The notes under the pieces were generated by a model. The model had not been told where the DNA came from. It did no database searches and saw only the letters and a program-made list of their open reading frames with translations. This document shows, one piece after another, positions 12,638 through 36,806 of a DNA stretch of 36,806 bases. The position numbers and the translations under genes are program-made. Source of the stretch: a virus. The stretch's first letter is position 1. Each line of letters starts with the position of its first letter. The stretch spans positions 1-36,806 of the IMG/VR virus record IMGVR_UViG_3300045988_135475, one strand, 5' to 3'.

Positions 12638-13480
12638 ATGGCAATCACAGGTTTTAAGAAAACAGTTTGGGAAACTGCATTAATGACTGCGTGGAGAGGT
12701 GTATCAGTTGCAGATGTAATTACAACTCCACCAACAAGAGTAGAAGGGGAAAAGGCAATATTTAATACTGTATCTGGTGGGACTGTTAAAGACTATGATG
12801 GTACTATAAGTTATGAAGATGCTACTACTACTCCAATTGAATTAGCATTTGACCAAAAGAAATATTGGGCAATTAAATTAGATGATGTTGATAAGGTTCA
12901 AGCAGCTGGACCAGTATTAACAGTATTAGCACAAGAAAAAGCATTAGATCTAAAAGAAGCCATTGATACTGATTTATTAAAAGAAATGGCTAAAATACCA
13001 ACTGAGAGCAACAAACAGTTAATAGGAGAAACAGAGACAAAAAAATCTATAACTGAACCTAGTCAAGCTTATGACTTTGTTGTTGATTTAGGAACTATTT
13101 TATCAACTAATAAGTGTCCTATGGCTAACAGATTTGTTATAGCAAAAGCAGAGTTTATTAATTTAATGGCAAAGGATAAGAGATTTGCAGACAACTTCAA
13201 TGTTTTACCTAATGGAATTGTACAAGGGGCAACAATTAACGGGATGACAGTAATTCAATGTGAAGATTTGCCAGCTAATACAGTTTTATGTGTACATAAA
13301 TCAGCGTTTGGATATGCAGCACAATTAAATGAAACTGAAGCTTTAAGACTTGAAAATTCATTCTCTGATGCAGTAAGAGGATTAGCAGTTTTCGGAAGAA
13401 AAGCTTTAAGAACAAAAGGTATAGCTGGATTATTATATGAAATTTCTCCAGCAGAAATTGTTCAGCTTAGAAGAAAATAA
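12638..13480 (+). CDS. major capsid protein
   Basis: 280-aa ORF after scaffold, GGGGGA RBS; position-based call. Confidence 0.6.
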   Translation: MAITGFKKTVWETALMTAWRGVSVADVITTPPTRVEGEKAIFNTVSGGTVKDYDGTISYEDATTTPIELAFDQKKYWAIKLDDVDKVQAAGPVLTVLAQEKALDLKEAIDTDLLKEMAKIPTESNKQLIGETETKKSITEPSQAYDFVVDLGTILSTNKCPMANRFVIAKAEFINLMAKDKRFADNFNVLPNGIVQGATINGMTVIQCEDLPANTVLCVHKSAFGYAAQLNETEALRLENSFSDAVRGLAVFGRKALRTKGIAGLLYEISPAEIVQLRRK

Positions 13481-24586: not shown

Positions 24587-25399
24587 ATGAATATTATAGA
24601 AACAAATTTAAACTTTGGGAATTTATCAAACTTAGGGGTAGTAAAAAGAATCATTTGTCATAATGCAGATGCATCAACATGTTCTATTGAAGATATAGAT
24701 AGATGGCATAAAAATAATGGATGGGCTGGTTGTGGATATCATTTCTATATTAGAAAAGATGGAACTATTTATAGAGGTAGACCAGAAAATAAGTTAGGAG
24801 CTCATACTTCTAACAATAATACAGGAAGCCTAGGAGTCTGCTTTGAAGGTAAATATAATACAGAAACAATGCCAGAAGCACAATTAAAGGCAGGACAAGA
24901 ATTAATTAAACATTTATTAGATAAGTATAAACTTAATAAATCTAATATATATAAGCATAAAGATTTTAATAATACAGATTGTCCCGGACATAATTTCCCT
25001 TGGACTAATATTATAAATGGAATAGATGGAGTAACTATTGATAATGTGACAGTTATTGAAACTCCAGCTAATAATATTAATGATACTGTAAAAGGTGATG
25101 ATTGGATCAGAAGATTACAACAAGAATGTAATAATCAAGGTTTTTCGAAACAAGTTGTAGATGGAATACCAGGACCAGCAACTTTAGCTGGATGTCCTAC
25201 TTTAAAGAAAGGAGCTCAAGGGAATATAACTAAGTTGCTTCAAGAGAAGTTAGTTAAACTGGGCTACAATACAAATGGAGTAGATGGAATATTTGGTAGT
25301 GGTACTCATTCAGCGGTAAGAGAATTTCAAAAAACTAGAGGACTTGCAGTAGATGGAATAGTAGGTCAAAATACTTGGAGAAAATTATTAAATATGTAA
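24587..25399 (+). CDS. endolysin: N-acetylmuramoyl-L-alanine amidase (Amidase_2/PGRP) with C-terminal peptidoglycan-binding repeats
   Basis: ICHNADAS..GCGYHFYI..AHTSNNN..DCPGHNFPW; two PG_binding_1-like repeats (DGIPGPAT, DGIFGSGTHSAVREFQ...DGIVGQNTWRKL). Confidence 0.85.
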   Translation: MNIIETNLNFGNLSNLGVVKRIICHNADASTCSIEDIDRWHKNNGWAGCGYHFYIRKDGTIYRGRPENKLGAHTSNNNTGSLGVCFEGKYNTETMPEAQLKAGQELIKHLLDKYKLNKSNIYKHKDFNNTDCPGHNFPWTNIINGIDGVTIDNVTVIETPANNINDTVKGDDWIRRLQQECNNQGFSKQVVDGIPGPATLAGCPTLKKGAQGNITKLLQEKLVKLGYNTNGVDGIFGSGTHSAVREFQKTRGLAVDGIVGQNTWRKLLNM

Positions 25400-25403
25400 T
25401 GGT

Positions 25404-25443
25404 AAATACTAGGTACTTAATTAGGTATCTAGTATTTTTTTTA
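25404..25443 (+). terminator. rho-independent terminator after the endolysin gene
   Basis: AATACTAGGTAC ttaatta GGTATCTAGTATT followed by TTTTTTTT. Confidence 0.5.
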
Positions 25444-25507
25444 AAAGGAATTTTTATACTTATGTAGAATTATATTATAGAATTGTTTTAAAGGGGGATA
25501 ACTACAT

Positions 25508-25666
25508 ATGATATGTCATAAATGTGATAGACAAGTAAATGGAAAGAAGAAGTTTAACTGGTTAATATTCTTACTATTAGTGTTTACAGGCTTTGGGTGG
25601 GCATTGTATTTACTATATTATTTCATTAAAAGACCTAAATGTGAATTATGTGGGTGTAAACTGTAG
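25508..25666 (+). CDS. small membrane protein with split zinc ribbon (CxxC - TM helix - CxxC), 52 aa
   Basis: CHKCDRQ...WLIFLLLVFTGFGWALYLLYYFI...CELCGC; GGGGG RBS; below track cutoff. Confidence 0.35.
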   Translation: MICHKCDRQVNGKKKFNWLIFLLLVFTGFGWALYLLYYFIKRPKCELCGCKL

Positions 25667-25739
25667 GGGAGCTTTAAGCTTCTCTTTTTTTATTGCTTTT
25701 ATTTCCGAAAAGGAAAATTAAGAAGAATTTAAAAAAATA

Positions 25740-25754
25740 ATTCCAAAATGGAAT
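25740..25754. promoter_or_regulatory. Operator-like inverted repeat ATTCCA-AAA-TGGAAT about 75 nt upstream of parM
   Basis: 19-mer ATTCCAAAATGGAATAATA identical to 30040-30058; same half-sites as the cI/cro operators. Confidence 0.55.
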
Positions 25755-25830
25755 AATAAAAGTTTTTTAATAATAGTATATAACAAAGAGATGAAAATCA
25801 TTAAAAATTAATTATTAGGAGGTAAAAGTA

Positions 25831-26721
25831 ATGATTATTGGAGTAGATTTAGGTAATTATGCAGTAAAAACAAGCACAGGAGTACATTTTTTAAGTAAAT
25901 TCATTGAAAGTAACGGATTTTACGGGAATGAGATTATTTATGATGATAAAGCGATAGTAGTAGGGGAGGGGGAATTTCAAACTGATTATAAGAAGAGTAT
26001 GAAAGAGAATACATTGCCATTACTATATAGTGCATTAGCTTTAAGTAATAAAGATGAACAATGTTTTCAAGTTGTATTAGGATTGCCTATACAACAATAT
26101 AAGAATAATAAAGCTGAACTAATAAACTTAATTGAAGATAATAGAGCAAAGACAGTAGAGGTTGATGGAAAGAAAAGAGATATATTCATAACAGATATAA
26201 CTATAGCACCAGAGGGTGCAAGTGCTTATTACAATTTAAGTAAAGAAAATAAGGCGGCTATAGGCAAGAAACAGTTAGTAATAGTTGATATAGGCGGAAG
26301 AACGACGGATGTTTGCTTATTTAAAGATAAAAAAATAAAGCAATATAAGACAGTACCAGGAGGTATGCTTAATATTTATAACGATATTGTTACAACTATA
26401 AATGAAGTATATAGTCAAAACTTCACTCTTGAAGATGGAGAAGAGGTGTTAAAAGAAGGTTTATTCTTAGATGGTGAATATAAAGATGTAAGTTTTATAA
26501 AAACTATTTTAAAAAGACAGTTCGATAGCATATTTAAGGAATTGCAATTAAATTTTAATGTTGATAAGGGGTATTTACTTCTTACAGGTGGTGGAGCTTC
26601 TACATTTAAAAAAGCATTTAAAAAAAGACTTAATAATGTAATAGTTAGTAAGGATAATGTTTTTGATAATGTAAAAGGATTTGTAAAGGTTGGTGAGCAA
26701 TTATGGCTAAACAACAAATAA
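25831..26721 (+). CDS. parM: actin-like segregation ATPase ParM/StbA family
   Basis: MIIGVDLGNYAVK (phosphate-1) and VIVDIGGRTTDV (phosphate-2) actin-fold motifs; LLLTGGGAS adenosine motif; AGGAGG RBS. Confidence 0.75.
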   Translation: MIIGVDLGNYAVKTSTGVHFLSKFIESNGFYGNEIIYDDKAIVVGEGEFQTDYKKSMKENTLPLLYSALALSNKDEQCFQVVLGLPIQQYKNNKAELINLIEDNRAKTVEVDGKKRDIFITDITIAPEGASAYYNLSKENKAAIGKKQLVIVDIGGRTTDVCLFKDKKIKQYKTVPGGMLNIYNDIVTTINEVYSQNFTLEDGEEVLKEGLFLDGEYKDVSFIKTILKRQFDSIFKELQLNFNVDKGYLLLTGGGASTFKKAFKKRLNNVIVSKDNVFDNVKGFVKVGEQLWLNNK

Positions 26722-26939
26722 GCATTAGCTTTAAAAATAATACTAAAGAAACTGAATTGTTTAGGATCATTAACTCTATAGAGGATAAGGCTGGAGAAAT
26801 TAAACCTATACTATATAAATATTTTGTGCTTGGATATAGATTTGCTGAAGAAAATGCAAGCAAGGGACAAGTGAATATTCAAATTAATAATGAAGTTGAT
26901 GAATATGAAGATGATGGGGTAGATGTAACTGATTTTTAA
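26703..26939 (+). CDS. parR: ParR-like small DNA-binding adaptor (putative ribbon-helix-helix)
   Basis: 78-aa ORF overlapping the parM end; N-terminal ISISFK beta strand + helix, acidic C-terminus. Confidence 0.4.
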   Translation: MAKQQISISFKNNTKETELFRIINSIEDKAGEIKPILYKYFVLGYRFAEENASKGQVNIQINNEVDEYEDDGVDVTDF

Positions 26940-27050
26940 TATGGTGGTACTACCACACTATTAGAATTTAGATAGTACAAGCTAATATGGTGGTAATGTG
27001 GTGGTAATTAACAAAAAATAGCCGATAAATGGTCGGTAACATATCGGTAG
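26940..27050. repeat. Candidate centromere/operator repeats: TGGTGGTA x3 incl. palindrome TGGTGGTACTACCACA, plus CCGATA..TATCGG inverted repeat
   Basis: ATGGTGGTA at 26941, 26986, 26997; CCGATAAATGGTCGGTAACATATCGG at 27022-27047. Confidence 0.5.
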
Positions 27051-27070
27051 AGTAGGGGAGAGGTTAGGTT

Positions 27071-27274
27071 ATGTTTGGAATAAAAGAGAAGAGTATAACA
27101 GGAAGAAAGAGTGAAGAGGAATTAAAAGTACACAGAATAACTGTACAGGTAAGTGCTAAGGAGAAAGAAAAGTTAAGAGTTCTTGCAAATAATAGAGGAA
27201 TGAGTATAAGTGATTACATTAGATATTTTTGTATTCATAAACCTTTTGCCAATAGATTTGAGGAGGACGAATAA
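27071..27274 (+). CDS. ribbon-helix-helix (CopG/MetJ-like) DNA-binding protein
   Basis: HRITVQVSAKEKEKLRVLANNRGMSISDYIRY fits the RHH beta-alpha-alpha pattern. Confidence 0.5.
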   Translation: MFGIKEKSITGRKSEEELKVHRITVQVSAKEKEKLRVLANNRGMSISDYIRYFCIHKPFANRFEEDE

Positions 27275-27278
27275 TAAA

Positions 27279-27614
27279 ATGTATGTTGATTTAAATTGTA
27301 TAGTTGAGCCAATAGCAACTTTAATATCATTAACATTCATATCTGGGCTTATAGCAATTACTATTTATAAACTTATTCAGAGTTGGGATTATGGAAAGGA
27401 AAAATATGAACTTAGAGAGCAAGAAGCTTTAAAGCAAAAGAGATTAGAAAATCTTAAATTAGAAAATTTAGAAGTAAACTTAACAGATGAAGATTTAGAA
27501 TTGTTAAAACTAATGAGTGGAAATAATTCAACTGTAAAAGGAACTTTAAGAAAGGCTTTAAGGGAGCATTTAGGTGATTTAAATAATTTTGAAAGATTAG
27601 AAGTGTACAAGTAA
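27279..27614 (+). CDS. small membrane protein with N-terminal TM helix and C-terminal coiled coil (alternative GTG start at 27210)
   Basis: GAGGAGG RBS; IATLISLTFISGLIAITIY TM segment, then heptad-like EQEALKQKRLENLKLENLEV. Confidence 0.45.
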   Translation: MYVDLNCIVEPIATLISLTFISGLIAITIYKLIQSWDYGKEKYELREQEALKQKRLENLKLENLEVNLTDEDLELLKLMSGNNSTVKGTLRKALREHLGDLNNFERLEVYK

Positions 27615-27643
27615 TAGTATTTAGTATTATATATTTTACTGAC

Positions 27644-27685
27644 ATTTTACTGACATTTTGAGGTTTTACTGACAGTATAGAAAAT
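27644..27685 (+). repeat. attP arm-type repeats TTTTACTGACAT x3
   Basis: Copies at 27644, 27656, 27674. Confidence 0.7.
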
Positions 27686-27726
27686 AAAAATAAACCGCTG
27701 ACACTAGTAATATCAACGGTTTGAAG

Positions 27727-27775
27727 TGGCACACCTAGTCGGATTCGAACCGACGACTTTTGGATTCGAAGTCCG
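27727..27775 (-). other. attP core: 3' portion (anticodon stem-loop to CCA) of a tRNA gene, tentatively tRNA-Arg (anticodon TCG)
   Basis: Minus strand reads GGA-CUUCGAA-UCC, AAGUC, GUCGG-UUCGAAU-CCGAC, UAGGUGU-G-CCA: T-arm, 7-nt acceptor 3' strand, discriminator, CCA; pairing breaks 5' of the anticodon stem. Confidence 0.65.
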
Positions 27776-27880
27776 TTATCAGTTTGTCCTTTTAGTATTT
27801 TTACAGGACAAGTGGTGTTATAAAGTCGCTTATTTTATAGCTTATAAGCATTGTTTGTCCCATATTATACTTTGTAAAAT

Positions 27881-27929
27881 TAACTGACATAAAAATTTTT
27901 ACTGACATTTTACTGACATGACAGTAAAG
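27881..27929 (+). repeat. attP arm-type repeats: TAACTGACAT, TTTTTACTGACAT, TTTACTGACAT plus inverted GACAGTAAA
   Basis: Same 10-mer family as 27644-27685, on the other side of the core and adjacent to int. Confidence 0.7.
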
Positions 27930-27942
27930 GATAAAATTAAAA

Positions 27943-27970
27943 GTGGACCAGATGGTCCACCTTATTTTTT
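27943..27970. terminator. bidirectional terminator at the int 3' end
   Basis: GTGGACC agat GGTCCAC, then CTTATTTTTT on + and UUUUAAUUUU on -. Confidence 0.55.
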
Positions 27971-29059
27971 ATATATTAAATTTTCGATTCTATTACTTGC
28001 ATCTCTTTCCAGTTGCTCCATTACATGAGTATATAAATTCATTGTAATTCCTATTTCGCTATGACCAAGCCTTTTTGAAGTTGTTTTTGCATCAACTCCA
28101 GCTAGGAGCATAAGACTTGCATTAGTATGCCTTAAATCGTGAAATCTAACATCGGGAAGTTTTCTTCTTTTAATATAATTCCTGTAAGGGGTATGGAAAC
28201 TTGCAGAAGATGCTTGCGTTCCATTTTCATTTGTAAATACTAAATTAGTATCATATCCCATTTGCTTTTGTTTTTCTTTATGTTCTTTTAATAGCTGCAT
28301 TAATTCCGTCGGAGCAGTTAAAACTCTTTGTGAACTTTCGCTTTTTGGCTCTTTAAATACTGCAATTTTATTTTTTTCATCCCATACACTAACCTTATCT
28401 ATTGTTATTATGTTATTATCAAAATCTACTTTAGACCACTCAAGACCACATATTTCAGAAAGTCTTAGTCCTAATCCAATAGCAAGATTAACAGGAACTT
28501 CATATCTACTTCCTTTTACTCCATCAAATAACTGCTTTACCTGTACAGGATCAAGAAAGTTAGCAGTAAATTTTTTAGGTTTTGGAGCTTCTACAAGTTC
28601 CATTATATTTTTATTTATGTACTGTAATCTATAAGCATCTTTGAAAGCTTTACTAAGCAATCTGTGATACTGCAGTTTAGTTTTTTCAGATAATCTGCTT
28701 AAACTGTTATAAAATTTATTAATTAGTAATGGAGTTACCTTTTGTAATTCAGTATTGCCCATAAATTGAATTATTTCATTAATGATAAGTTCATAACGGT
28801 TATATGTAGTTATAGATAATTTATTATACCTATCAGAATGCCACTCCCTTAAAAAGCTTTCTACAGTTAATTTATTAGGTATTATTAAATCATTGTTTAG
28901 CAGTTTATTTTTTTCTTTTATTAATAATTTATTAGCTTCTCGTGATGAATTAAAACTTCCAAGATTTTTTTGCTTTCTTCTATTATCATTATCACGATAT
29001 TCAACCATTACATAATACTTTGAATTTCTTTGTCTAATAAATACACTTAATATATCCAA
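27962..29059 (-). CDS. int: tyrosine site-specific integrase
   Basis: C-terminal catalytic signature GLRLSE..HDLRHT..LGHSEIGITMNLYTHV (R, HxxR, Y); TTG start, AAGGAG RBS. Confidence 0.9.
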   Translation of the reverse strand: MDILSVFIRQRNSKYYVMVEYRDNDNRRKQKNLGSFNSSREANKLLIKEKNKLLNNDLIIPNKLTVESFLREWHSDRYNKLSITTYNRYELIINEIIQFMGNTELQKVTPLLINKFYNSLSRLSEKTKLQYHRLLSKAFKDAYRLQYINKNIMELVEAPKPKKFTANFLDPVQVKQLFDGVKGSRYEVPVNLAIGLGLRLSEICGLEWSKVDFDNNIITIDKVSVWDEKNKIAVFKEPKSESSQRVLTAPTELMQLLKEHKEKQKQMGYDTNLVFTNENGTQASSASFHTPYRNYIKRRKLPDVRFHDLRHTNASLMLLAGVDAKTTSKRLGHSEIGITMNLYTHVMEQLERDASNRIENLIYKK

Positions 29060-29072
29060 TTATATCAACTCC

Positions 29073-29189
29073 TTATTTTTGATTATTACCAGGAGTGTTG
29101 GATTTATACTGACATCCAAAAACTATTTTCCCATTCTCCTTTATTTTGATAATTCTTTCTAGTAATTCTTTTTCTTTTTTATTTAACAT
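29073..29189 (-). CDS. small ORF (38 aa) between cI and int, containing one TACTGACAT arm-site copy
   Basis: AAGGTGGGG RBS 8 nt upstream of the ATG; stop lies just upstream of the int RBS; could be non-coding. Confidence 0.25.
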   Translation of the reverse strand: MLNKKEKELLERIIKIKENGKIVFGCQYKSNTPGNNQK

Positions 29190-29292
29190 TTTGTCCCCAC
29201 CTTATAATCCCATTTAATAATATATTATACTGTTTTTTCCTAAAAATAAATATGAGCTTATATGCTCATAAGAACGTATGTTCTAAAGTGTT

Positions 29293-29324
29293 CTAAAAAA
29301 AATACTGATAGCTTGTATCAGCAG
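29293..29324 (-). terminator. rho-independent terminator downstream of cI (minus strand)
   Basis: CUGAUA caagc UAUCAG followed by UAUUUUUUUU on the minus strand. Confidence 0.5.
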
Positions 29325-29326
29325 TT

Positions 29327-29674
29327 TTATTTATCAAGTAATTTATCTATATCAAATCCAACATCTTCAAGCTTTTTTATTAAGCTTTGTAATGTTTCTT
29401 TGTTTACATTTCTTTTATCGCCTTTAATTTCAATTTCGTAGTCTTGTGGTAAATATATAATAGAATTGTTTGGTTCATCAACTCTCCCATATAAATAATC
29501 AGTTGTAACATTAAAAAAGTCAGCTATTTGTTTTACAATTTCTCCGTTTGGAACTCTGCCAGAACAATATTTAGAAACTGTAGGAGCAGTAGCATTAATT
29601 TTTTGTGCAAATTCAGTTTGACTCAAGTGATTTTCATTTAAAAGCTGAGTTAACCTATCACCAAATATCTTCAT
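29327..29674 (-). CDS. CI-like phage repressor (XRE-family HTH; no S24 peptidase domain)
   Basis: LSQTEFAQKINATAPTVSKYCSGRVPNGEIVKQIADFFNVTTDYL; divergent from the cro-like gene. Confidence 0.8.
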   Translation of the reverse strand: MKIFGDRLTQLLNENHLSQTEFAQKINATAPTVSKYCSGRVPNGEIVKQIADFFNVTTDYLYGRVDEPNNSIIYLPQDYEIEIKGDKRNVNKETLQSLIKKLEDVGFDIDKLLDK

Positions 29675-29760
29675 TTTATCACCCCTTTATTATATTTTAT
29701 ATAAAAAAGACATAAAAAGCACTTTAAATGCCAAAAAAGAATTTTTTTTTACAAAAAGCA

Positions 29761-29789
29761 TTGACAATGCCAAATTGGAATAGTATATT
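29761..29789 (+). promoter_or_regulatory. Rightward promoter (PR-like): TTGACA - 17 nt - TATATT driving the cro-like gene
   Basis: Consensus -35 at 29761-29766 and -10 at 29784-29789 with a 17-nt spacer. Confidence 0.55.
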
Positions 29790-29817
29790 ATATACATAAG
29801 CTATTCCAAATTGGAAT
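29767..29817. promoter_or_regulatory. Operators O1 (29767-29781, in the promoter spacer) and O2 (29803-29817, ATTCCA-AAT-TGGAAT)
   Basis: Inverted-repeat half-sites ATTCCA/TGGAAT with 3-nt spacer; O1 left half degenerate (TGCCA). Confidence 0.6.
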
Positions 29818-29831
29818 AAGGAGGTGAGAAC

Positions 29832-30056
29832 ATGTCAAATAACGTTGAGTTTTTTAGTAAAAGACTAGGCATTAGTAGAAAGGAAATAGCTGAAGCAATT
29901 GGAAAATCTACTAGAACAGTAGGGGAGAAGATTAATAATAATATCCCTTGGACACAAATGGAAATTATGCTTGTAACTAATTTACTTAAAACTAAAGACC
30001 AAAGTTTAAATGTAGAAACTATTTTTTTTAAAGAGCTTTATTCCAAAATGGAATAA
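29832..30056 (+). CDS. Cro-like HTH regulator
   Basis: LGISRKEIAEAIGKSTRTVGEKINN HTH; AAGGAGGTG RBS; divergent from cI. Confidence 0.6.
   Translation: MSNNVEFFSKRLGISRKEIAEAIGKSTRTVGEKINNNIPWTQMEIMLVTNLLKTKDQSLNVETIFFKELYSKME
30040..30054. promoter_or_regulatory. Third operator copy ATTCCA-AAA-TGGAAT at the 3' end of the cro-like gene
   Basis: Identical 19-mer to 25740-25758. Confidence 0.55.
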
Positions 30057-30090
30057 TACAATTATAGTTTAACCAATACAAAAGAATAAT

Positions 30091-30369
30091 ATGCCAACTT
30101 TTAAATGGGGGAGCAGGAGAAAGAAGGCAATACAAATGATAAAACTAGAATACTACAGAATAAAAAAAGGGTTTACTGTGTATGGGCTAAGTAAGGCAAC
30201 AGGAATATCTAGGAGGCAGTTAGCAAGGATAGAAGATGGCACAAGTATGCCAACTGCATTAAAAATAATAGAAATCTGTTTAGCTTTAGATATTACACCA
30301 AATGAACTCTTAGGATGGGAGGAAATTTACAATGAGAAGAAGCGAATTACCAGAAGTAATGACAATTAA
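30091..30369 (+). CDS. second XRE-family HTH regulator (likely start ATG 30136)
   Basis: GLSKATGISRRQLARIEDGTSMPTALKIIEICLAL; GGGGGAGCAGGAG RBS before 30136. Confidence 0.65.
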   Translation: MPTFKWGSRRKKAIQMIKLEYYRIKKGFTVYGLSKATGISRRQLARIEDGTSMPTALKIIEICLALDITPNELLGWEEIYNEKKRITRSNDN

Positions 30370-30511
30370 AGATGTACAGGAATTTCTTAAGATAAGCAAA
30401 AATACAGCTTATGACTTAATAAAAAGAGAAGAGTTTCCGGTTGTAAGGCTTGGGAGATTATTAAGAATTAATAGAGAAAAGTTTCTTGAATGGTTTGATA
30501 AGGCAAGTTAG
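30332..30511 (+). CDS. xis: excisionase-like DNA-binding protein (AlpA/MerR-type Xis fold), 59 aa
   Basis: MTIKDVQEFLKISKNTAYDLIKREEFPVVRLGRLLRINREKFLEWF matches the excisionase-family HTH; below track cutoff. Confidence 0.5.
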   Translation: MRRSELPEVMTIKDVQEFLKISKNTAYDLIKREEFPVVRLGRLLRINREKFLEWFDKAS

Positions 30512-30553
30512 GAGTAAATAAATTATATATAAACTTTGGGAATAAGATAAATA

Positions 30554-30690
30554 GGGCTATAAAGCCTTTTTAAATGGTCGAAAGTGCGAAAAATGATGTA
30601 GAAAAAAATAATAAAAAGTTAGTTAAGGCGATAAGCCTTTAAAAAATAGCAGAGTTGCGAAAAATGCTGTAATTAATGGTCAACTCTTAT
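30554..30690 (+). repeat. Imperfect tandem repeat (about 70-nt unit x2), each with a short GGCnATAAGCC hairpin + T run and a TGCGAAAAATG(A/C)TGTA box
   Basis: GGGCTATAAAGCCTTTTT...GTGCGAAAAATGATGTA vs GGCGATAAGCCTTTAAAAAA...TTGCGAAAAATGCTGTA. Confidence 0.6.
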
Positions 30691-30761
30691 CAAAAACCAC
30701 ACACCGATAAGAGTAAGGTGAGGAATTGGAAAGATTAAATAATTATAAAGGGGGATTTTAA

Positions 30762-30893
30762 ATGGAAACAATGAACTTTTGGGGAATGTGTACTTTTGTA
30801 CTTCCTATATTAATGGTTATAAGTATCGGATTTATAGTTATGATTAGTTCTTTACTTAAAGGAATATTTAAGTTTTTAGGAGGGTTAAGATGA
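30762..30893 (+). CDS. small hydrophobic membrane peptide (43 aa)
   Basis: AAGGGGG RBS 7 nt upstream; FVLPILMVISIGFIVMISSLL TM segment; ATGA stop/start overlap with the next ORF. Confidence 0.45.
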   Translation: METMNFWGMCTFVLPILMVISIGFIVMISSLLKGIFKFLGGLR

Positions 30894-31045
30894 CAATACA
30901 AAAAATGCTTGAAGAAGCGATTAAATTATTTGGGACAAGCGATGAAGTTACTATTTTATTAAGCCAAAAGAGAGATAAAGAAATAGTTGAACTTCAAAAG
31001 GTTAATTATGAAAACTATAAAAGGAGTGAGTATTGTGGAATGTAA
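30890..31045 (+). CDS. small hypothetical protein (51 aa), translationally coupled
   Basis: AGGAGGG RBS inside the upstream peptide gene; ATGA overlap. Confidence 0.35.
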   Translation: MTIQKMLEEAIKLFGTSDEVTILLSQKRDKEIVELQKVNYENYKRSEYCGM

Positions 31046-31391
31046 AAATTGCAGTTGGTTTAAGATTAATCCTTTTATATTTGATGATGGAACTCAAACA
31101 ATGGAGTGTATTAAATATAATAGTTTCTTAGGTTTTACTACCAGTACAGGTGAAATTACTAAACAAAGGAAAAATGATAATTGCATTTATAAAGAAGTGA
31201 TAGATAAGCCTATAAAGAAAAGGCAAATAGCACCTAAGAGCAATGTAAGGGGAATTACTTGGGATAAAAGGGACAAGATATGGAAAGTCACATTTTGGGA
31301 TAGAAAAGCAAGAAGGAAAATTTATTTAGGACAACATAAGGATTTGGACCAAGCAATAAAACTTTTAGAAGAGTGGTTAAAAATGAGGTAA
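30987..31391 (+). CDS. Zn-ribbon + AP2-domain DNA-binding protein (start uncertain: 30987, 31008 or GTG 31036)
   Basis: CKNCSW...C..YNSF Cys cluster; C-terminal RGITWDKRDKIWKVTFWDRKARRKIYLGQHKDLDQAIKLLEE fits the AP2 pattern G(V/I)xW-x-KW-x-A-Y-LG-F-EEA. Confidence 0.45.
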   Translation: MNFKRLIMKTIKGVSIVECKNCSWFKINPFIFDDGTQTMECIKYNSFLGFTTSTGEITKQRKNDNCIYKEVIDKPIKKRQIAPKSNVRGITWDKRDKIWKVTFWDRKARRKIYLGQHKDLDQAIKLLEEWLKMR

Positions 31392-31393
31392 CT

Positions 31394-31957
31394 ATGGATA
31401 AGGATAAGGAACAATTAGTTTTGGAGCATTTACAACTAGCTAATAAAATTGCTATTCAAATGTTTGCTAAATTAAAGAATAAATACACATTAGATGAATT
31501 GAAAAGTAGTGCATACTTAGGACTTATTACTGCGGCTGAAAAGTATGAAATTAATAATAATAAACCTTTTGAAAATTTCGCTAGAAAAAGAATTAAAGGG
31601 GCAATATTAGATGAAGTTAAAGATGATAAGAGATACAACATAAAAAGAGGTATTCCACATAAAGAGCCTATACAATCATTAAATTGTAATTGTAATGAAA
31701 CAGGTAAATCAATTGCATTTATAGATTTGTTACAGGATAAAGGAGATTTTTTCGAGGATTTACTTATTAATTATGAAATAGAAAAACTTTTATCATGTTT
31801 GGATCATAAAGAAAGAGAATTAATAGATATGTATTATTTTCAATGTTTAACTCATGAAGAGATTGCCCAAATATTAAAAGTGCATAGGACAACAGTAACT
31901 AAAGTATTAAAAAAGATAATAGAAAAGATAAAAGGTTGCCTAACCACCGGCAAGTAG
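31394..31957 (+). CDS. sigma-70 family RNA polymerase sigma factor (regions 2 and 4 only; phage-encoded alternative sigma)
   Basis: Region 2: AYLGLITAAEKYEINNNKPFENFARKRIKGAILDEV; region 4 HTH: ERELIDMYYFQCLTHEEIAQILKVHRTTVTKVLKK. Confidence 0.7.
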   Translation: MDKDKEQLVLEHLQLANKIAIQMFAKLKNKYTLDELKSSAYLGLITAAEKYEINNNKPFENFARKRIKGAILDEVKDDKRYNIKRGIPHKEPIQSLNCNCNETGKSIAFIDLLQDKGDFFEDLLINYEIEKLLSCLDHKERELIDMYYFQCLTHEEIAQILKVHRTTVTKVLKKIIEKIKGCLTTGK

Positions 31958-36303: not shown

Positions 36304-36774
36304 ATGAAAGATTATATGGGTGAATTAGAAAGAGAACGTTATTGCATGTTTTTAGTAGCTTTAAAAATAGCTGGTGAGTTACTAGAAAGTAGTTTATTTA
36401 GTAAAGAGGAAAAGTCAAACCTTAAGAGATGCATTACTTGGGGAAGAAAAGTAAATCTTTTAGAAGAAGGAAGATTAAATAAGTCAGCATCTAAAACATT
36501 ACTAAATATGATGAATAACGGTCATATAACTTATATGGATAAGTATGGGTCACAGTTATGGGATAAGAAGAAAAGTGCAAATATAAAAGATAAATACGAA
36601 GAAAATAAAGAGTATTTTGAATTAGTCGAAATGATATTCCATTACAACTGTAGAGGATGCCAAAAATGTGATTATAAAACTTGTGATTTCTATAAAGTAT
36701 TTGAGCAACATATGATTCCAGAAATGCAAGTTAATGAACCAGGAAAATGTAAATTCTTTTATGAGGAGATTTAA
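36304..36774 (+). CDS. hypothetical protein with C-terminal Cys cluster (likely start 36304, not 36274)
   Basis: Track ATG 36274 lies inside the repeated ATGAATAATTCAAAAATA; AGGAGG RBS precedes ATG 36304; CRGCQKCDYKTCD cluster. Confidence 0.4.
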   Translation: MKDYMGELERERYCMFLVALKIAGELLESSLFSKEEKSNLKRCITWGRKVNLLEEGRLNKSASKTLLNMMNNGHITYMDKYGSQLWDKKKSANIKDKYEENKEYFELVEMIFHYNCRGCQKCDYKTCDFYKVFEQHMIPEMQVNEPGKCKFFYEEI

Positions 36775-36806
36775 AAGTGTATAACATAGTAATTACTAGA
36801 AAAAAA

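Follow-up and report, generated by a model that had tools for sequence, protein, structure and literature searches.

A CI/Cro-type switch operator recurs upstream of the ParM segregation cassette of a temperate Clostridium phage

The nearest precedent for the arrangement described here is the CB repressor of phages N15 and phiKO2, which acts on related operators at the cB/cro switch (OR, immB) and at the promoter of a maintenance gene. In N15, CB binds OR as well as two OL sites at the repA promoter (PMC4488713), and this system links immunity to inheritance, as we propose for the DNA analysed here. That DNA, the viral record IMGVR_UViG_3300045988_135475 over its full 36,806 nucleotides (nt; hereafter the window), carries a divergent CI/Cro-like immunity switch as well as a cassette headed by parM, which encodes an actin-like segregation ATPase, and an operator of the switch (termed U) recurs upstream of parM. 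Our full-text literature search, which was not exhaustive, found no published switch operator at a parM or other partition promoter, nor covariation of such a site.

Two further systems provide background. The integrated prophage CGP3 of Corynebacterium glutamicum encodes the actin-like AlpC and the DNA-binding adaptor AlpA, which act on the excised circle (PMC4446434), and Cluster A mycobacteriophages have dispersed repressor sites (stoperators), with some members carrying a parABS system expressed in lysogens (PMC6550527).

Operators of the switch and their copy upstream of parM

The inverted repeat ATTCCA-N3-TGGAAT occurs without mismatch at three positions of the window (25740-25754, 29803-29817 and 30040-30054), for an expectation of 0.00 in 100 shuffles. 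When one mismatch was allowed, the sites numbered four (O1, O2, E and U; 0 expected), and no further copy appeared elsewhere in the window, as the first-pass annotation of this DNA had stated. At up to two mismatches seven sites were found for 2.6 expected, the three extra ones lying within coding regions at chance level. The coordinates of these sites and of the surrounding features are collected in Table 1.

Two of the sites lie between the cI-like and cro-like genes. Both had been annotated as exact, which holds for O2, whereas O1 carries one mismatch. The placing of O1 within the 17-nt spacer of a TTGACA/TATATT promoter (PR, with hexamers at 29761 and 29784) agreed with our analysis. O2 had been thought to cover the transcript start, but it lies at about +7 to +21 from the inferred PR start, just downstream of it and directly before the cro Shine-Dalgarno sequence. 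It also overlaps the –35 element of a candidate leftward cI promoter (TTGGAA-16-TATACT), and O1 and O2 lie within a 22-nt inverted repeat that holds this candidate promoter as well. The site at the 3′ end of cro, E, covers the last five codons and the stop codon (YSKME*), and U follows an intrinsic terminator and ends 72 nt (taken as a 19-mer) or 76 nt (taken as a 15-mer) before the parM ATG; both positions were correctly anticipated, the latter as about 75 nt, and so was the 19/19-nt identity of U and E (ATTCCAAAATGGAATAATA).

Table 1. Positions and supporting evidence for the operators, promoters, genes and recombination site discussed in the text
Feature	Position	Strand	Evidence or remark
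Intrinsic terminator closing the lysis module and a 52-aa open reading frame (ORF)	25665-25685	+	9-pair stem, then T-run
Operator U	25740-25758	.	perfect palindrome ATTCCAAAATGGAAT at 25740-25754; upstream of parM
Inferred parM –10, TATAAC	25779-25784	+	inside conserved block AATAGTATATAACAAAG
parM, actin-like segregation ATPase	25831-26721	+	Pfam ALP_N 4e-16; PHROG 691 partition protein 1e-57
Candidate ParR adaptor, 78-aa ORF overlapping the parM end	26703-26939	+	position and size
Candidate centromere (parC-like), three TAATATGGTGGTA repeats and inverted TACCAC	26937-27006	.	repeat analysis
Ribbon-helix-helix (RHH) protein, NikA/CopG-like	27071-27274	+	Pfam NikA-like 1.7e-8, RHH_1; syntenic in relatives
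111-aa ORF, last gene before attP	27279-27614	+	no family match; syntenic in relatives
attP, phage-borne copy of a tRNA 3′ half	27722-27775	-	L258 junction and repeats
Tyrosine integrase with arm-binding domain	27962-29059	-	Pfam Phage_integrase 5e-27, Arm-DNA-bind_4; PHROG 1
CI-like repressor, 115 aa	29327-29674	-	Pfam HTH_3 4e-13
Possible degenerate third switch site ATGCCAAAAAAGAAT	29727-29741	.	3 mismatches; in PR-region duplication
PR, promoter of cro and early genes, TTGACA-17 nt-TATATT	29761-29789	+	11/12 matches, best sigma-A-like promoter of the region
Operator O1 ATGCCAAATTGGAAT	29767-29781	.	one mismatch (ATGCCA); fills PR spacer
Operator O2 ATTCCAAATTGGAAT	29803-29817	.	between PR start and cro Shine-Dalgarno sequence
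cro-like gene, 74 aa, helix-turn-helix (HTH)	29832-30056	+	HTH families
Operator E	30040-30058	.	cro 3′ end; 237 nt downstream of O2
Second small HTH protein, first gene after E	30136-30369	+	Pfam HTH_3 2e-10; syntenic in relatives
Excisionase-like HTH_17 protein	30332-30511	+	Pfam HTH_17 1.8e-14; PHROG excisionase families

The PR/O1 segment forms part of a 38-nt imperfect tandem duplication (29714-29790), the upstream copy of which has lost the –35 element and half of the operator. At the equivalent of the degenerate third site, the related locus L348 has a good extra operator (TTTCCAAAATGGAAA, about 13140-13160).

The divergent orientation of a repressor gene and a small early HTH gene, with palindromic operators overlapping the early promoter, is that of a CI/Cro switch, and the same layout was found in six related switches. 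The CI-like protein combines an N-terminal XRE-type HTH domain with a small C-terminal tail of beta-hairpin and helix (five helices followed by this tail in a structure model with a predicted local distance difference test score of 88). Its N-terminal domain matched the profiles of ImmR, P22 C2 and the 434 repressor, and full-length fold matches, to phi106/arbitrium-phage repressors and small Bacillus phage repressors under antirepressor control (9sf2, 9iaq), were weak. Pfam returned HTH families only and no S24 peptidase domain in CI, which sets this repressor apart from the autocleavable lambda/LexA type. The Cro-like protein matched MOR of phage TP901-1 (PDB 6to6) weakly (E 0.012 with the single sequence and 0.003 with a profile), the HTH domains of HipB and of C-proteins matched it better, and its score against Pfam DUF739 (25.6 bits) fell below the cutoff of 27.

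Both proteins have homologues in the other immunity groups, the CI proteins of all groups differing in the recognition-helix region; close homologues of the window CI retain T-[VI]-[SN]-K-Y-C. The operator itself codes for the C-terminal residues of the Cro-like proteins, which vary with immunity type (YSKME, VSFLDT, VSFTDT, LADLVS, LTFKVS and FAFEVN), behind a conserved VFFK motif (GTTTTTTTTAAAGA). These operator-coded ends lie at 30040-30056 in the window, at 14282-14298 in L046, 14451-14467 in L052, 8848-8864 in L041 and about 4500-4520 in L333.

For comparison with relatives, we used loci with contiguous parM, int, cI and cro genes and searched each over its full length for the operator that its own PR region defines. 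An alternative approach, in which the best 15-mers shared by the parM-upstream region with its own and with foreign switch regions were compared, was abandoned because the A/T-rich background swamped the signal and left no discrimination. Instead, switch-derived palindromes were scanned over whole loci next to a strict palindrome-recurrence scan, a loose version of which proved too noisy. A protein search with CI returned short contigs only and a CI-based locus search two distant loci; short-motif scans of viral and metagenomic collections of AT-rich DNA gave almost only chance matches, with the contig L258 (see below) as the only useful one.

In four further immunity groups, the locus's own PR-type palindrome recurred both upstream of parM and at the cro 3′ end. 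Loci L046, L047 and L048 (ParM 77% identical to that of the window) contain exactly four perfect GTATCC-N5-GGATAC sites (0.01 expected), which fall at the positions of U, O1 (the PR spacer), O2 and E, and none elsewhere at up to one mismatch. For L052 (ParM 76%), which has a CTAACT-N5-AGTTAG-like palindrome, the pattern MTARCY-N5-RGYTAK, built from O1 and O2 alone, gave four matches without mismatch (0.16 expected), which fall at the same four places: upstream of parM, O1, O2 and the cro 3′ end. In L033-36 (ParM 74%), O1 and O2 read GT[AG]TCC-N5-GGATAC, while the near-identical U and E (AAAAAGTATCCTTT[G/A]CAGACA) share the 21-mer AAAAAGTATCCTTTRCAGACA, the left half of which is the O1/O2 half-site and the right half a variant. 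Overall, the operator serves as the PR spacer in L033, L041, L046, L052 and L348 as well, and the site at the cro 3′ end was kept in all relatives examined (L033, L041, L046, L052, L333 and L348).

Locus L056 (ParM 77%) carries the window-type TTTCCAAATTGGAAT upstream of parM, and the window-type switch predicted for its contig was indeed found, since a scan of the viral collection with TTGACA-WTKCCA-N3-TGGAAT returned the same contig (as L348). In this switch, O1 matches the window copy exactly, O2 is present, E is perfect, and a further good site lies 40 nt ahead of O1; the CI encoded there shares only 66% identity with the window CI. Conversely, L026, a prophage locus consisting of parM with 10-kb flanks (its switch region lies beyond), encodes a ParM that is 94% identical to that of the window, but has GTCCAATTTGGTC in place of U and lacks an ATTCCA-type site throughout its 20.9 kb, its homology to the window beginning only at AATAGTATATAAC. 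Because L056 keeps the window-type site and L026 does not, U follows the immunity type rather than parM. As far as sequence comparison goes, this covariation supports the earlier suggestion that one switch regulator also governs the parM cassette, and U probably functions at the parM promoter as an operator for the switch regulators, whatever the sign of its action. The presence of a switch operator at a maintenance-gene promoter is a feature that the window thus shares with N15-like prophages.

By the same evidence, it is hardly credible that U matches the operator by chance, or that recombination passively brought a functionless copy of the cro 3′ end to this place. Although the genome is AT-rich (29% G+C) and the flanking bases shared by U and E suggest a copying event, the chance expectation ranges from 0 to 0.16 sites in a locus, the position is taken by independent operator sequences in at least four immunity groups, and the site is kept where CI has dropped to 66% and ParM to 77% identity.

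In three immunity groups U and E, flanks included, are more alike than either is to O1 or O2 (window 25740-25758 and 30040-30058; L033 9922-9942 and 14296-14316; L052 9909-9943 and 14433-14467), and the two sites form direct repeats that bracket the whole lysogeny module. This near-identity suggests repeated copying between the sites, with U being kept matched by copying from E. It could also indicate that U and E are a subclass bound not by CI but by the Cro/MOR-like protein or the second HTH protein, so that parM would be switched by an early lytic regulator. We regard this as improbable. The pairs do have distinguishing marks, namely a central AAA instead of AAT beside the 19/19 match in the window, the variant right half-site in L033 and a shared T8A5 flank plus 16 nt in L052; in L033, L046 and L052, E immediately precedes the ribosome-binding site of the second HTH gene; and the Cro profile resembles restriction-modification controller proteins, which are activators working from sites next to the –35 element. 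However, the four sites of L046/47/48 are equally good palindromes without any subclass, U and E have half-sites in common with O1/O2 in every group, L041 possesses E without U, and copying of E into U explains the likeness equally well.

The parM promoter and the sign of regulation at U

The terminator upstream of U, which has equivalents as hairpins before the parM region of relatives, isolates the parM promoter region. All relatives share a layout in which this terminator is followed by A/T runs, a variable palindrome, 24-26 nt of unrelated sequence, a conserved block and the leader. The block reads AATAG(T/G)ATATAAC in all relatives and has no second copy in the window. Its TATAAC was taken as the –10 element because the Clostridium perfringens plasmid prophage phiSM101 has TATAAT with a consensus TTGACA 18 nt upstream within AATAGTATATAAT, and L056 has TATAGT; the phiSM101 pairing also led us to reject TAGTAT as the –10 element. 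The window family has a degenerate sequence (AATAAA) at the –35 position and no TG motif.

The spacing of this promoter to the operator is constant. U ends 24 nt upstream of the conserved –10 element in the window, and the distance is 24-26 nt in every group despite the unrelated intervening sequence. Given the inferred start, U would span about –51 to –37 and thus abut the degenerate –35 element. The operator at PR, by contrast, always fills the –35/–10 spacer, whereas the parM-upstream operator lies outside the spacer in every group. In loci L040-45, from lineages with an HTH gene of their own before parM, another palindrome, ATTCAT-AAAC-AGGAAT, takes the place of U, likewise 24 nt from the –10 element; this position therefore looks like the regulator's site for the parM promoter. 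A dedicated HTH gene of 65-69 aa directly precedes parM in L041, L043, L054, L037-39, L334-336 and several IMG/VR loci, and lineages of this kind have no switch operator at parM. Two other palindromes were noted in this region. TTTCC-GAAAA-GGAAA lies at 25701-25718 of the window, about 25 nt upstream of U, and also occurs in L056 (about 9900), and GGAAAC-TTTCC lies close to the parM –10 element in L037-39 and L061-71, distant relatives with their own small HTH gene.

As for the sign of regulation at U, we tentatively favour, with somewhat less than even confidence, a positive-control site at which the bound protein recruits RNA polymerase to a very weak promoter, because of the fixed distance, the poor core promoter, the abutment of the site on the –35 element and its replacement by the site of another HTH protein. 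With either sign, U would be a fourth operator of the CI/Cro-like switch, placed at the promoter of parM-parR-parC and presumably bound by a CI dimer, so that transcription of the segregation genes would depend on the immunity state. CI of lambda represses one promoter from its core and stimulates PRM from OR2, beside a weak –35 element, and activation at U might resemble this action of OR2-bound CI on PRM. The cassette would then be expressed whenever CI is present, during establishment as well as in the lysogen, and could offer a back-up, plasmid-like inheritance to a genome that is normally integrated at a tRNA gene. For genes with a role in inheritance, co-expression with CI would be biologically sensible.

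Taken further, this model would have an integrating phage use its immunity repressor as positive regulator of a remote segregation cassette, a scenario that we consider rather unlikely. A CI-carrying genome outside the chromosome (prior to integration, following spontaneous excision or in a host without attB) might then be inherited like a plasmid; the promoter might have given up its own –35 element for whichever HTH regulator is available, CI or the dedicated small HTH protein; and the remote operator might be kept matched by copying from the site in the last cro codons.

A number of observations weigh against U being an operator of this kind. A switch operator at parM is recurrent but not universal. 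In L041 and L043, which have a serine recombinase, CTGAC-N7-GTCAG is found at O1, O2 and the cro end and not upstream of parM. Likewise, the L333 palindrome TTCGC-N7-G[CT]GAA, present at O1, O2 and the cro end, went without a match in the 131 nt of available sequence before parM, and L028 is ambiguous in that its GTGGTTATAAATAAC upstream of parM contains one perfect half-site with wrong spacing. In L056, the lysis-module flank upstream of U is common with the window along with U itself, and co-inheritance contributes to the likeness there. As for activation, repressors of this class are not known activators, and the operator centre lies at –44 to –47 (with TATAAC as –10), varying by 3 bp between groups. 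Moreover, it is not obvious why an integrated prophage would need ParMRC, in the window taken alone U overlaps a passable extended –10 promoter (TTTAAA-18-TGGAATAAT), and alpAC of the integrated prophage CGP3 are early genes switched on after induction and needed for efficient phage DNA replication (PMC4446434).

The last three of these points fit better with simple repression, in which CI at U would silence the parM cassette in the integrated lysogen, where segregation is not needed, and the cassette would be derepressed early on infection or induction and help to position or replicate the excised circular genome. We judge this possibility to be nearly as likely as activation. Repression is the primary role of CI-type proteins, the early transcription unit contains E, to which U is identical, and CB of N15 acts negatively at repA. 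The promoter overlapped by U is not conserved, however: in other groups the operator is not followed by a –10 element, and the A-runs upstream of it vary in length from 5 to 9 within a group, for which reason we also rejected TTTAAA as the conserved –35 element of a U-overlapping promoter. Furthermore, the conserved –10 element, with neither –35 element nor TG motif, would leave a derepressed promoter very weak, and the position of the operator outside the spacer in all groups differs from that at PR.

The segregation cassette and the integrating phage

The structural matches of ParM in the PDB are to Clostridium botulinum Cbc-ParM (7x54, 8e-19) and Alp12, and the cassette has the actin-like ATPase of a type II (ParMRC) partition system. 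ParM is 32% identical to its phiSM101 counterpart and 94% identical to one in UMGS990, an uncultured human-gut Clostridium genome. In total, 410 homologues were found, many on chromosome-sized contigs, including those of C. botulinum, C. sporogenes and C. neonatale; one locus, L059 (IMGVR_UViG_7000000006_000006), encodes a 67% identical ParM in a different gene context. The 78-aa ORF is kept downstream of parM in all relatives and had no family match in Pfam or PHROG searches, so that it is proposed as ParR from its position and size. In R1-type ParMRC systems, the centromere iterons surround the parM promoter and the adaptor autoregulates there. No iterons were found at the parM promoter of the window, which carries the immunity operator instead, and the repeats behind the candidate ParR gene might possibly be a centromere that lies downstream of the partition genes and not at their promoter. 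A similar set of GTGGTAAT repeats occupies the same place in L026 (11110-11170).

The window has identical ends of 55 nt (1-55 and 36752-36806) and therefore is a circularly assembled genome with a true length of 36,751 bp. Its gene content is that of a complete siphovirus-type temperate phage, with primase/helicase, large terminase, portal, major head protein, tape measure, tail proteins, holin and endolysin, and we assign it to a temperate Clostridium phage; a DNA search of GenBank phage records gave no close relative. Behind these genes lie the parM-like gene, the small ORF, the RHH gene, the 111-aa ORF, the tyrosine integrase and CI-like genes (both on the minus strand) and the Cro-like gene, after which come the second small HTH gene, the excisionase-like gene and a sigma factor. 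The latter, of the sigma-70 family (regions 2 and 4), is encoded at 31373-31957; L033 has one as well and L046 has none.

Between the endolysin gene and the parM promoter, phages that are similar in other respects differ in their cargo (L046 7667-9259, L052 7198-7953, L027 7116-7934 and L048 8934-9659), which comprises SIR2-like, TIR, Abi_alpha and DUF3800 proteins, and this place appears to be a variable slot for defence genes.

Integration was evident from the metagenome contig L258, which is 99% identical to the window from 27761 onwards, with Int, CI and Cro identical to those of the window and with O1, O2 and E unchanged. The contig opens with 81 nt of foreign DNA, at the end of which stands a different tRNA 3′ half. 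The changeover from host to phage at window position 27761 marks this junction as attL, and the phage therefore integrates at a tRNA gene. The crossover core of attP lies at about 27761-27775 (TGGATTCGAAGTCCG), and three ACTGACA repeats on either side (27638/27649/27668 and 27883/27901/27912) are probably arm-type sites of the integrase that flank this core. A tRNA search and an Rfam scan of positions 25000-31000 gave nothing real. Integrated relatives are L027, L029-32, L040, L042, L044, L045 and L049-51; in these, the parM cassette forms the last phage genes before the host DNA, beside attR. With its integrase, tRNA-type attP and the integrated copy L258, the phage is not an extrachromosomal prophage of the kind of N15. 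The term plasmid-type segregation genes, used in the first-pass annotation, hence suits the homology of ParM to partition proteins and needs qualification, since the phage integrates at a tRNA gene.

Integration also bears on the distance between U and the switch, which is 4 kb in the circle and about 33 kb, at opposite ends of the prophage, once integrated. U might in principle act by looping only, being joined to E, O1 and O2 via CI across the 4.3-kb lysogeny module so as to strengthen repression of PR, with no direct effect on parM transcription. DNA looping between OL and OR is known from lambda. The operators of the window are spaced by 36 nt, 237 nt and 4.0-4.3 kb, the modelled C-terminal domain of CI could conceivably oligomerise, and the CI hexamer of TP901-1 uses several operator sites (PMC4941734, PMC7250872). 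Since recombination at the attP core parts U from the switch by about 33 kb, however, such a loop would be missing in the stable lysogen. In addition, looping leaves the fixed distance of U to the parM –10 element in all groups unexplained, and relatives without U keep a switch that looks functional. We therefore see it as very unlikely.

Relation to described systems

ParM cassettes are common in integrated Clostridium prophages, and an operator that covaries with the switch gives a testable handle on the timing of their expression. If U activates, the phage would have a CI-dependent back-up plasmid mode; if U represses, the parM cassette would belong to the early lytic functions, like AlpAC of CGP3. 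The locus may also serve as a natural case in which a remote operator changes in step with the specificity of the repressor, and in which the operator sequence dictates part of the C-terminal tail of a Cro protein.

The switch resembles that of the Lactococcus phage TP901-1 in its divergent cI and small early HTH genes, in a short CI without an autocleavage domain, and in palindromic operators at the promoters, joined by one more site some 230 nt downstream (within or behind the early gene), to which E corresponds as an additional operator downstream of the lytic promoter. It differs in that the match of the Cro-like protein to MOR is weak (E 0.003-0.012), with generic HTH proteins scoring better, and in that CI has 115 aa here. 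We know of no TP901-1 operator outside its switch region. Compared with lambda, the same repressor again represses from a promoter core and could stimulate another promoter from upstream of a weak –35 element; the activated promoter of lambda is that of cI itself, beside the switch, whereas here it would be that of an accessory operon 4 kb away (33 kb when integrated), and the site centre lies at about –44 to –47 instead of –42. Many immunity-repressor sites are scattered over the genome of P1, as operators of C1. In P1 and the Cluster A phages a dozen or more, often asymmetric, sites act genome-wide, whereas the window has exactly four sites, with a single remote one at a defined promoter position.

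With regard to the segregation genes, CGP3 differs by having the adaptor gene first, adaptor sites in the promoter region and SOS-linked induction; no shared immunity operator has been described for it, and its proteins are not close relatives of this ParM. The plasmid prophage phiSM101 is closer, with a homologous ParM (32%), the homologous –10 block and a small downstream ORF. It differs in its consensus TTGACA –35 element, in the AAAAAGTAACTTTTT palindromes that flank the promoter (L332, 5869-5885 and 5953-5968), which are probably adaptor or autoregulator sites, and in an adjacent plasmid replication gene, and no integrase was found near its parM in the 12.8 kb examined. By this comparison, the window family has evidently lost the –35 element and carries an immunity operator instead.

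N15 remains the nearest precedent, with several differences. The target of CB is a replication gene and that of the switch described here a partition operon; the N15 prophage is obligately a linear plasmid, while the present phage inserts its genome at a tRNA gene; and N15 lacks a covarying site at the cro 3′ end. Finally, the N15 sites overlap the predicted promoter, whereas U abuts a promoter that is devoid of a –35 element.

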